26,553 nucleotides of DNA from a virus (Duplodnaviria > Caudoviricetes). Within the stretch, counting starts at the first letter, position 1. Each line of letters starts with the position of its first letter. This document shows, piece after piece, positions 18,229-21,639 of the stretch. The translations under genes were made by a program, and so were the position numbers. The notes below the pieces were generated by a model that was not told where the DNA came from, made no database searches, and saw only the letters and a list, made by a program, of their open reading frames with translations. The stretch spans positions 1 to 26,553 of IMG/VR virus record IMGVR_UViG_3300020045_005630. The stretch is one strand, 5' to 3'.

Positions 18229-18345
18229 TATATTTATAGTGCGATTCAGTTATGAAAACATTAAAAAATCCCATATTAGTTACATTGCCTGAAGTGCTTA
18301 ATAGCCTACTGGATCGCCTTTGTAATTGATATGGGTATTTTTATT

Positions 18346-18849
18346 ATGAAAGAAATACAACTAAGTAAGCAAGGTAAAAACAAAGGCAAATATGTTGCTT
18401 TAGTAGATGATGAAGACTATGAAAGAGTCAATCAATTCAAATGGCAAGCTAAAATAGGTTCTAAGACTATTTATGCAAGAATGCGCGTATATTTATGTGG
18501 TAAAAATAAAAATATACTTATGCACAATTATATAATGGGAATTGACGGATTAAGGTCAAATGGATTAGAAGTTGATCATATATTTCATAATGGACTTGAT
18601 AATCAAAAGAAAAATCTAAGAGTTTGTGACATTGCTAAAAATAGAATAAATAGAGAAAAGAATAAAAACGGATCATCAAAATATAAAGGCGTTTTTTTGC
18701 ATAGCTTAAACGGTACGTGGAGATCGGTAGTCCAGTTTAATTATAAAAAATATAGTCTTGGATATTTCAAAACAGAAATTGAAGCTGCAAAGGCATACGA
18801 TAAAAAAGCAAAGGAGTTGTTCGGAGAATATGCAACCACTAATTTTTAA
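18346..18849 (+). CDS. HNH-AP2 homing endonuclease
   Basis: ALVDDED..., VDHIFHNGLDNQKKNLR (HNH), SKYKGV...SLGYFKTEIEAAKAYD (AP2). Confidence 0.9.
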   Translation: MKEIQLSKQGKNKGKYVALVDDEDYERVNQFKWQAKIGSKTIYARMRVYLCGKNKNILMHNYIMGIDGLRSNGLEVDHIFHNGLDNQKKNLRVCDIAKNRINREKNKNGSSKYKGVFLHSLNGTWRSVVQFNYKKYSLGYFKTEIEAAKAYDKKAKELFGEYATTNF

Positions 18850-19146: not shown

Positions 19147-19559
19147 CAGAAATAAACTATTCAGAAAGAATCGAAAAGATACTACACATCATTGCAAATA
19201 ATAAAACCAATAAAGAAAAGATTGATATGATATTAGTTGAGTCTTTATTAATCATGGATGAGCTAGGAGATGTTAAGCGGTCTTATACATTTGAGCAAAT
19301 TAAAGAACAGGTAGTGATGCACACAGGAATACATTTTAAACAGATTTGTTCTAAGTCAAGAAAGAAAGAAATAACAGAAGCTAGGCAGATGTGCCACTAT
19401 AAGGCTCGATTATTTACCAAAGAACGATTAGAGGATATTGGAAAGTTCTTCGGTGACAGGGATCATTCAACCGTTTTGAATAGTTTTAAACAGATTAAGA
19501 CTTATTTAGAATCAGATAAGCATTTTAAGATCAGGCACGAATTATTTTTGAATAACTAA
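19143..19559 (+). CDS. DnaA C-terminal (domain IV-like) HTH protein
   Basis: SKSRKKEITEARQMCHY...IGKFFGDRDHSTVL. Confidence 0.85.
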   Translation: MTEINYSERIEKILHIIANNKTNKEKIDMILVESLLIMDELGDVKRSYTFEQIKEQVVMHTGIHFKQICSKSRKKEITEARQMCHYKARLFTKERLEDIGKFFGDRDHSTVLNSFKQIKTYLESDKHFKIRHELFLNN

Positions 19560-19954
19560 TGTTTGATGTAAGTTTTCCAGCCCTTCAATTGGAAATGCGG
19601 TCGATCAATCATACTTTTAAAATTACCGCCCCATTCGATTCTAGTATCAATAGAGGTCAAAATATCAGCGAAGTTCTTAAAGTTAATAATTGACCAATCT
19701 AATGACTTGTCAGGCTTTAAAAAAGCTATATCAAAGGCCAATGAAGGCAAATAGTTATGCGGAGATTGTCCGGCATGAGCGTTTGTAACTTTTGGAACTT
19801 GTTTAAATAGTTGTTCCTGTTCATCATTGCTTCGATAAGTACAAGTCAAAAACGGTTTTGAAGCGTCAGGATATAATTCTGAATATTTGGCGACTGCTTT
19901 TTCATAAGCAATGCCTAATATTAAATGCAAGTCTTGAATTTTTCTTGATCCCAT
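19556..19954 (-). CDS. Endolysin, M15-family (L-Ala-D-Glu-type) peptidase
   Basis: TYRSNDEQ...VTNAHAGQSPHN...AFDI...EWGGNF...DRPHFQ; start moved to MGSRK, downstream of TATCTTTG at 19988-19995. Confidence 0.9.
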   Translation of the reverse strand: MGSRKIQDLHLILGIAYEKAVAKYSELYPDASKPFLTCTYRSNDEQEQLFKQVPKVTNAHAGQSPHNYLPSLAFDIAFLKPDKSLDWSIINFKNFADILTSIDTRIEWGGNFKSMIDRPHFQLKGWKTYIKH

Positions 19955-20187
19955 GTTACACAGCATATTAATTAATGGCTCTATTGTCAAAGATAAAGAT
20001 TAATTTTGAATATTAAATAACGCTGATGTATAGCGGCAGAGACGGATTCGGAGAGAAATCCAGTCGAACCGATATACAGATAATGCGAGAGTTGAACTAC
20101 GCAAACCGATACAACCGGATTTGACCGCTATACAAAGTTGTGGTTAGTGCTTCAAAGTCGATAATTAAAATTTAAAAACTCATAAAA

Positions 20188-20304
20188 ATGAAAAAACTTA
20201 AACAGTTCCTATTTGATGCTTATTGTATTTGGGATCACCCATTTACTCAAATAATTTTAGTAATTGCTATTATCGTTATACTTCTATTAAATGGAAAATT
20301 ATAA
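20188..20304 (+). CDS. Small membrane peptide, 38 aa
   Basis: MKKLKQFLF...IILVIAIIVILLL; A-rich leader. Confidence 0.55.
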   Translation: MKKLKQFLFDAYCIWDHPFTQIILVIAIIVILLLNGKL

Positions 20305-20554
20305 AGTTGATCTGAAAAAAGTATCGTGCTGCAATAGATTTGAGTGCAAAATATCATGCACTCCTGACAATTGCTTCAATGAACACTTTAAATGTACATG
20401 GTTTGCTCTCGCAATTAAGGTAGCTGAAGATAAACTGTCAAATAAATGTCAGTGCCTAAAGAACAATTACTACCATCTCACTGAAACTATTTGTCCTCAT
20501 TGCGGAAAAACATACGATGAACAGTATGACCGTCAACGAAGCATTTATCATTGA
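20291..20554 (+). CDS. Cys-rich protein (putative zinc binder)
   Basis: Many Cys including CPHCG; stop codon falls in the TGACTACAAC site. Confidence 0.65.
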   Translation: MENYKVDLKKVSCCNRFECKISCTPDNCFNEHFKCTWFALAIKVAEDKLSNKCQCLKNNYYHLTETICPHCGKTYDEQYDRQRSIYH

Positions 20555-20771
20555 CTACAACTTGTATATACCAGCAGTTAATTACTCAAAAGGCCAATGA
20601 AACCAATACTTTTAAAAATAGCTTATCGGTAAAAATAAATTAAAATGTATTGTAATAATTACTATATTTGTATAGTCATCTCTCACTGACATATAAGATA
20701 TTAGGTGTAAAAACCTTAGACCCTGATTTATGTGTGTGAGAGCCATATTTCAGGGTTTTTAATTAGTAGTT

Positions 20772-21245
20772 ATGAAAGAAATTAAATTAACTCAGGGACA
20801 GGTGGCATTAGTTGATGATGAAGATTTTGAATATCTCAATCAGTTTAAATGGTGCGCACATAAAAACGGAAATGTTTTTTATGCTATTAAGACTATATAT
20901 GTTTACGGCAAGCGAACTAAAGGAAAGATGCATAATATCATAATGGGAATAAAATTTATTGATCACGTGGATAATAACGGGCTTAATAATCAGCGATCAA
21001 ATCTTAGAGCTTGTACTAATAGTGAGAATCAAATGAACGCTACTAAACGAGTAAAAGCAACTTCTTTATATAAAGGTGTTTATTATTGTAAAAAAACAGG
21101 GAAATGGAAGTCTACTATACAAATTAACGGCAACCAAATTTATTTAGGATATTTTATTTATGAGGTAGATGCCGCCAATGCGTATAATAAAAAAGCTATC
21201 GAACTTTTCGGCGAATTTGCGAATATTAATATTATATCTTATTAA
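20772..21245 (+). CDS. HNH-AP2 homing endonuclease (paralog of 18346..18849)
   Basis: ALVDDED, IDHVDNNGLNNQRSNLR, YKGV...YLGYF..EVDAANAYN. Confidence 0.9.
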   Translation: MKEIKLTQGQVALVDDEDFEYLNQFKWCAHKNGNVFYAIKTIYVYGKRTKGKMHNIIMGIKFIDHVDNNGLNNQRSNLRACTNSENQMNATKRVKATSLYKGVYYCKKTGKWKSTIQINGNQIYLGYFIYEVDAANAYNKKAIELFGEFANINIISY

Positions 21246-21246
21246 T

Positions 21247-21280
21247 AAAAAAGGGAAGCTAATAACTTCCCTTTAATTTT
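21247..21280. terminator. Bidirectional terminator between convergent genes
   Basis: AAAGGGAAG-CTAATAA-CTTCCCTTT flanked by A and T runs. Confidence 0.75.
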
Positions 21281-21296
21281 TGCCAAAAAATGTTTT

Positions 21297-21485
21297 TTAC
21301 TTAGGTACTCCTGTTACATCTGAGTCTTTTGCGAATAAAAGGCCAATACCACCAAGTAATGAACCTATTGCAGCCATTACAATTTGTTCGTTTAAGGTAT
21401 TGCCTTTATAAGCAAAATAAACACCTACCACGGCACTTGCAATTAATGCAATCCCAGCCGAAGTTGTTTTCCATGATTTATTCAT
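21297..21485 (-). CDS. Holin-like two-TM protein
   Basis: MNKSWKTTSAG...two TM helices...GLLFAKD; start moved to 21485. Confidence 0.65.
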   Translation of the reverse strand: MNKSWKTTSAGIALIASAVVGVYFAYKGNTLNEQIVMAAIGSLLGGIGLLFAKDSDVTGVPK

Positions 21486-21639
21486 CTTGTGAATTTTTAA
21501 AATTGTTTTTACTCCTATTTTTGCCCACTGTAATTTTGATATTTTGTTCATTGATCGTGTCTGATAAGTTATATTTTTTCTTTTTAAACCTTTTTATAAA
21601 TCTATAAATTCCTGATATGGATATACTAAACGGCTTCAT
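21478..21639 (-). CDS. Small basic protein, 53 aa
   Basis: MKPFSISISGIYRFIKRFKKKK...; overlaps both neighbours. Confidence 0.45.
   Translation of the reverse strand: MKPFSISISGIYRFIKRFKKKKYNLSDTINEQNIKITVGKNRSKNNFKNSQDE

Follow-up and report, generated by a model that had tools for sequence, protein, structure and literature searches.

Does the hairpin in the lysis region of this phage belong to a mobile gene cassette, and if so, where would the cassette be cut, and by which enzyme? The window, that is, the whole stretch of DNA that was analyzed, is virus record IMGVR_UViG_3300020045_005630 (26,553 nt; completeness 35%). The original prediction held that an integron attC-like hairpin and a complementary distal core delimit a cassette with two small ORFs. 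The features of the locus are:

19556-19990, − strand: endolysin (peptidase M15); left neighbor, outside the cassette unit.
20019-20139, + strand: attC-like hairpin, consisting of an AAC core, 5-nt spacer, 10-bp stem, variable loop, 2-nt spacer and GTT core.
20019-21, + strand: left AAC core, the putative crossover, followed by the 5-nt spacer.
20027-36/20125-34, + strand: 10-bp stem, with an extrahelical A at 20124.
20137-39, + strand: GTT core, separated from the stem by the 2-nt spacer.
20140-20153, + strand: right flank, complementary to the distal core; after excision, it would complete the outer stem of the circle.
20188-20304, + strand: cargo ORF1, 38 aa; C-terminal half hydrophobic; conserved in L125, L126 and L150.
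20291-20554, + strand: cargo ORF2, 87 aa; cysteine-rich; homologues 92% and 73% identical.
20552-20561, + strand: distal core TGACTACAAC, ending in AAC (20559-61), the putative crossover; its TGA stops the 87-aa ORF.
20559-20596, + strand: attI-like array-end site AAC-5nt-WATA, conserved from the AAC onward and without a hairpin partner.
20597-20632, + strand: 11-codon stub of an 80-aa gene that is intact after the end site in relatives.
20772-21245, + strand: HNH endonuclease; right neighbor, outside the cassette unit.

Early and middle genes of the window lie on the + strand up to 19559, and the lysis and tail genes lie on the − strand. The cassette had been described as inserted against the late-gene direction; that orientation stands, but it is the direction of the early and middle genes, as it is for the arrays of relatives. 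The cassette, the HNH gene and a terminator-like two-way hairpin (21250-21274) stand between the endolysin and the remaining lysis-region genes (window 19556-21551). The HNH gene, just before which the 11-codon stub sits, has a paralogue at 18331-18849. That the two ORFs have no visible promoter, as first proposed, is uncertain because a TAnnTTTG motif, the -7 promoter element of Bacteroidota, lies at 20001-08 on the + strand, although 29 such motifs occur on that strand across the window. A TAnnTTTG motif belonging to the endolysin (19995-19988 on the − strand) was recorded as overlapping it. A sigma-70 promoter scan of the sequence gave a site count no higher than in shuffles, and sequencing reads (one run with a small share) covered the HNH leader only. 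The host is presumably a member of the Bacteroidota, because a relative, a Lutibacter MAG contig, carries the same hairpin subtype beside similar lysis genes. Endolysin relatives were 39-40% identical at most and provided no synteny, and blastn of 19990-20780 against cultured phages returned short, weak matches only.

The predicted motifs were all present: TAAC at 20018-21, the stem at 20027-36/20125-34, the unpaired A at 20124 and GTTG at 20137-40. GAAGCA (20538-43) complements TGCTTC (20148-53), and 20552-61 pairs with 20137-46 through 8 Watson-Crick and 2 G-T pairs. The hairpin had been drawn from 20018 to 20146. This segment does fold, but the true extent is 20019-20139, since 20140-46 pairs with the distal core and not with the hairpin's own left flank: the right flank scored 8.5 with the distal core, 419 nt away, versus 1.5 with the left flank. 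A complement score of 8.5 was reached by 2 of the 1080 AAC sites of the window, and the distal core is beyond chance. The right flank co-varies with the distal core in two related loci (L125 and L149). No convincing upstream partner for the hairpin's left flank was found, the best scoring 6 at a distance of 3.8 kb.

DNA folding of 20010-20155 compared with 200 shuffles gave z scores of -3.18 (+ strand) and -2.79 (− strand), with 1 and 0 shuffles as good. The minimum-energy DNA folds lack the long stem; the centroid folds contain it, with a probability of ~0.65 on the + strand and ~0.9 on the − strand. Nine perfect 10-bp inverted repeats within 150 nt occur in the window, and such a repeat alone is weak evidence. 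The pairing probability of the AAC/GTT cores was ~0.06 in the linear molecule and 0.71-0.93 (+ strand) at the modeled circle junction, in agreement with the proposal that an excised circle would have a better-paired hairpin.

A search for the stem arms returned four viral loci on two contigs, one contig with several copies, and a looser pattern returned 44 loci, some of which are chance hits or belong to a different element. At L008, L013, L023, L031, L033, L035 and L047, the loose pattern matched a separate hairpin of 109 nt that is highly conserved and occurs in many viral contigs; because its flanks are constant, it may be another element. Exact patterns performed poorly in bacteria (1 locus in the genome collection; 2/301 genomes), and therefore a covariance model was needed. 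We aligned 30 hairpins of 118-129 nt, from 34 chosen by an AAC/stem/GTT filter. Sixteen of 22 pairs had changed on both sides, a score reached by 0/500 shuffles, and the AAC/GTT pairs were invariant; because of the filter, pairing is overestimated and the cores could not be other than invariant, and the register of the inner pairs is poor.

The covariance model built from this alignment, R1, was run with at most 41 candidates scored per genome and matched 39 of 81 Bacteroidota genomes, often as arrays, and the family also forms arrays in phages. The family architecture is AAC-5nt-stem...stem-2nt-GTT with a median length of 123 nt (171/196 sites measure 118-128 nt, partly by construction), and one 9.9-kb phage contig holds 13 sites. 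The hairpin is accordingly a palindrome of the attC kind, with AAC/GTT cores, an unpaired central spacer, an extrahelical base and a structure kept under sequence change. R1 found one strong match in the window (94.4 bits), the hairpin itself, which was in the training set; a weak match lies at 66-150 (17.4 bits, E 0.054). With one strong hairpin in a record that is 35% complete, the window is not a CALIN (at least two attC sites without an integrase). No Rfam family, Flavo-1 included, matched the hairpin or its homologues. Some phage-like hairpins enclose a whole gene in a 290-360 nt loop, and two chromosomal arrays have a near-identical short unit before several of their hairpins (L106/L107, four copies; L114, three).

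If these hairpins delimit cassettes, neighboring sites should be joined by the complementarity seen in the window. The right flank of one site and the left flank of the next paired with a score of at least 6 in 59/76 phage-like and 26/36 chromosomal neighbor pairs. The corresponding controls were 3/121 and 7/75 for a site's own flank, 7/76 and 3/36 for reversed flanks, and 157/4817 and 153/4719 for random pairs. As in integrons, cassette ends are thus complementary on circularization. Gene polarity differed between hosts and viruses. In chromosomes, the longest inter-site ORF was antisense to the AAC-5nt orientation in 43/43 units, which is the classical layout with the hairpin downstream of the gene. 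The cargo was sense in 38/39 viral or metagenome units, with the hairpin upstream of the gene, and in 32/38 units on the small contigs of set G001. The proposal that the hairpin precedes its cargo therefore holds in the window and in these units, and the attC rule of a site downstream of the cassette gene does not apply to the window. In phage-like arrays, the first ATG lies inside the hairpin in 25/70 sense cargo ORFs (e.g., L044:3616-3739, L170).

Movement of such units would require a recombinase. None is visible in the window, as had been noted: no PF00589 (tyrosine recombinase) match was found there, in G002 and G003, or in the complete phage G305, and phage P12002L has no recombinase match. 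The complete phage G304 encodes a 265-aa PF13495+PF00589 protein directly past its array, and homologues adjoin five of the chromosomal arrays examined. A profile built from six of these sequences placed the family (265-275 aa) in 27/81 genomes. Hairpins occurred in 22/27 recombinase-positive versus 17/54 other genomes (p 4e-5), and in 16/21 recombinase-positive genomes when the six training genomes were removed (p 7e-4), relatedness being ignored in both comparisons; the co-occurrence suggested as a check was therefore observed. Hairpins were present without a recombinase match in 17 genomes, and the recombinase without hairpins in 5. Of the 17 non-profile genomes with both, at least 10 have the gene no more than 12 kb from a hairpin and, among the matches listed, invariably on its GTT side; the direction of the gene varies. 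No R1 site was found near the recombinase of Ingeline_1, though one long-loop hairpin is present. From its position beside such arrays, the PF13495+PF00589 protein is likely the enzyme of this system. The candidate has 21 residues where VchIntIA has 64, so that ~43 are absent at the IntI insertion; it aligns continuously with the archaeal XerA structures 4a8e and 5hxy, and it scored 158 bits on TIGR02249, for which the cut-off is 265. It is thus not an IntI with the specific insertion near patch III.

These properties bear on one alternative, that the hairpin is an ordinary attC, a single site without integrase that came from a host integron and is recombined by standard IntI. The likeness is real: attC sites have the same AAC/GTT triplets, an asymmetric central spacer and bulges, according to the part of the source available (PMC8946536). 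Recombination of attC sites uses a folded single strand, shows strand bias and is resolved by replication. Phages carry published attC clusters without integrase (CALINs), including two sites in Polaribacter phage P12002L, which the accessible portion of that report treats as ordinary attC (PMC9892861, Qi et al. 2023). However, the heptamers RYYYAAC/GTTRRRY are absent from both strands, the + strand reading AAATAAC and GTTGTGG and the − strand CCACAAC and GTTATTT; the triplet alone is kept. The enzyme beside the arrays lacks the insertion residues. In the portion consulted of the CALIN report, IntI1 recombined five of six tested sites, P12002L attC2 among them, and the sole exception was P12002L_attC1, a short member of this hairpin family predicted by HattCI (PMC9892861). 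We found that P12002L_attC1 matches R1 (E 0.0018) and that the published attC2 stretch does not; in the whole phage (L174, NC_028924), R1 finds 7 sites at E<0.01 versus the 2 published. Integrons are also very rare in Bacteroidetes, with one complete integron in Bacteroidetes proper, in the part available of 10.1101/2022.02.28.482270. An ordinary attC is therefore an improbable reading of the window hairpin.

The accessible portion of PMC9892861 describes no separate family, end site or short recombinase. The words "cassette," "integron" and "deletion" are absent from the main text of PMC8776804, which was available in part, and the available parts of PMC2864571, PMC9723704, PMC8618304 and PMC13616975 hold nothing specific on the hairpin system. 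A literature search, whose coverage mostly excluded subscription journals, returned no description of the hairpin system as such.

The distal AAC of the cassette begins an end site that is conserved in relatives: in 9/10 loci compared (L089 being the exception), identity begins at the AAC and the sequence upstream differs. The end site is listed at eleven loci besides the window. We considered whether it could be the left arm of a long-loop hairpin and rejected this, as the best stem scores (3.5 for a search within 215 nt, 11 for 1500 nt) did not exceed the background median of 11.5; for comparison, long hairpins scored 24 and 26.5 in two cases. Phages G304, Freya and Leef and three chromosomes have a similar AAC site without a hairpin, ~45-100 nt ahead of the gene for the recombinase. 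Rather than being an arbitrary target, the distal site is a conserved array end that resembles attI, and it quite likely acts as a double-stranded attI; in the window, however, no recombinase follows it.

Where the crossover lies is best seen in Polaribacter phage Freya, for which ten records are available (GenBank MT732463-MT732472; L158-L173). All ten encode a homologue of the candidate recombinase, the position of which varies from record to record, and their hairpins match R1. Six records were compared with Freya_10 as the reference (Freya_3, 4 and 7 were left out), and all 6/6 break at an AAC. In five, between 307 and 4942 bp are missing, and the sequence common at the joint is just 3-4 nt (AAC). 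Each missing segment begins at the left AAC of a hairpin; four extend to the end site and one to another left AAC. Freya_6 instead has an extra 469-bp unit, AAC to AAC, before the end site, with a hairpin of 290 nt. In 5/6 records the joint is the end site, which lies 46 nt ahead of the recombinase gene. Three joints are internal and three lie within 4 nt of record ends, so that assembly effects are possible at the latter. The Freya records are a natural series in which cassettes were lost and, once, gained at AAC cores beside a recombinase. Exchange at the AAC cores, as the original prediction had it, agrees with these breakpoints and with the varied sequence upstream of the same distal AAC. 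Its companion expectation found no support: a scan for an empty site joining 20021 to 20562 gave 2 pattern matches, neither homologous to the window flanks, that site was found in no relative, and for the window locus it remains a model.

A crossover at the right core (G|TT) would instead assign the hairpin to the upstream unit and make the two ORFs a cassette with a decayed downstream hairpin. In L125, the same cargo (88% over 449 bp) follows a hairpin of the 80-nt class that is unrelated to that of the window (identity 0.51, against a background of 0.54), and identity with the window begins at the right core; L059 and L060, which hold near-identical hairpin copies, have the left flank and hairpin type in common and differ in their right flanks. 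A single left-core crossover is therefore insufficient for L125, and right-core exchange or microhomology is also needed. Yet the six Freya differences and the variable joints at end sites all break at the left AAC, the GTT side of arrays is where the non-hairpin site and the recombinase are located, and in the best-conserved other cargo pair (94%) the upstream hairpin is better preserved than the downstream hairpin (identity 0.69 versus 0.33). Among ten homologous cargo pairs, most of them distant, upstream-hairpin identity exceeded the background 95th percentile in 4, and an all-against-all blastn for breakpoints gave five informative pairs only. The right core is quite improbable as the main crossover of the window; exchange there is likely a minor route, like attC top-strand recombination.

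The cargo itself matched no PHROG or Pfam family with either ORF, and ORF2 had no atlas hit at 0.9. Differences between ORF2 and its homologues fall mostly at third codon positions, and from this bias both ORFs look translated. What comes after the shared 3' end of the cargo, starting at the AAC, is the end site in the window, in L125 and in L149, and a complete hairpin in L150. At L126:1602-1938, both ORFs occur with neither hairpin nor cores, a state that may precede capture or result from decay.

It is highly improbable that the hairpin is a structured RNA leader or a small RNA, regulating the genes after it and spread by ordinary homologous recombination: the hairpin is more stable as RNA than as DNA, precedes genes in phages and contains the first ATG of the 25 ORFs mentioned above, but it has no Rfam match, in chromosomes follows genes in antisense orientation, and as an RNA would leave unexplained the flank pairing across a whole gene and the breakpoints with 3-nt identity. 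Retron-, hammerhead- and riboswitch-like readings, judged by eye, were dropped given the arrays and chain pairing.

We conclude that positions 20022-20561 are quite likely one cassette of a Bacteroidota integron-like system, probably excised and inserted at its AAC cores by a short tyrosine recombinase acting in trans. Site anatomy, family covariation, arrays, chain complementarity, variable sequence at the same distal AAC and the Freya breakpoints are observations, and together they support the attC-like cassette reading with which we began. By analogy with the attC bottom strand (PMC8946536, available in part), the + strand, which carries the AAC-5nt side, would probably fold when single-stranded and be cut at AA|C, next to the 5-nt spacer. 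Recombination between this AAC and the following one would excise 20022-20561 as a circle of 540 bp, leaving behind a left flank-AAC-end site, and insertion would occur into the double-stranded end site. For the window phage, the enzyme would come from the host or a co-infecting source. Because the gene follows the hairpin in phage cassettes, unlike in chromosomal ones, new units would be added at the 3' end of the early operon.

More broadly, and with moderate confidence, we suggest that a second lineage of integrons operates in Bacteroidota and their phages, in which a short Xer-like enzyme without the IntI insertion acts on folded single-stranded hairpins. Phages would build inverted-polarity cassettes of their own, which are shuffled during growth (as in Freya) and swap at either core, and recombinase-less phages, including that of the window, would borrow the host enzyme. 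The IntI insertion has been taken as necessary for integron activity and used to define integrons, in the part available of PMC4889954, and standard scans detect almost no integrons in Bacteroidetes. If the shorter enzyme does recombine these hairpins, a cassette system detected in 39/81 genomes was missed, and single-strand recombination is possible without the IntI insertion. The opposite gene polarity of phage and host cassettes bears on how cassettes are made. The cultured Freya phages and their host offer a ready system for a direct test; the window locus itself is a small, one-cassette example without its enzyme.

Among known systems, the Flavo-1 RNA motif (RF01705) is likewise a repeated Bacteroidota hairpin, but it differs in sequence and structure, and identity with it was rejected, as its covariance model has no match in the window. 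The P12002L CALIN is closer: its attC1 belongs to the hairpin family, the phage has no integrase, and the cargo includes a methyltransferase. The candidate enzyme resembles XerA/XerC/XerD in aligning to XerA without the IntI break; unlike them, it adjoins hairpin arrays (27/81 genomes carry it), and its site is not a short dif-like duplex. With integrons, the system has in common imperfect palindromes with AAC/GTT cores, an asymmetric spacer and a bulge, cassette ends that are complementary only after circularization, one array end with a non-hairpin site next to a tyrosine recombinase, and, in chromosomes, the classical gene-then-hairpin layout. It differs in an enzyme without the IntI-specific insertion, in spacers of 5/2 nt, a length of ~123 nt and the absence of the heptamer consensus, and in phage cassettes whose hairpin lies upstream of the gene. 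The window unit thus works like an integron cassette, yet departs from integrons in IntI, in the heptamers and in the position of the site.
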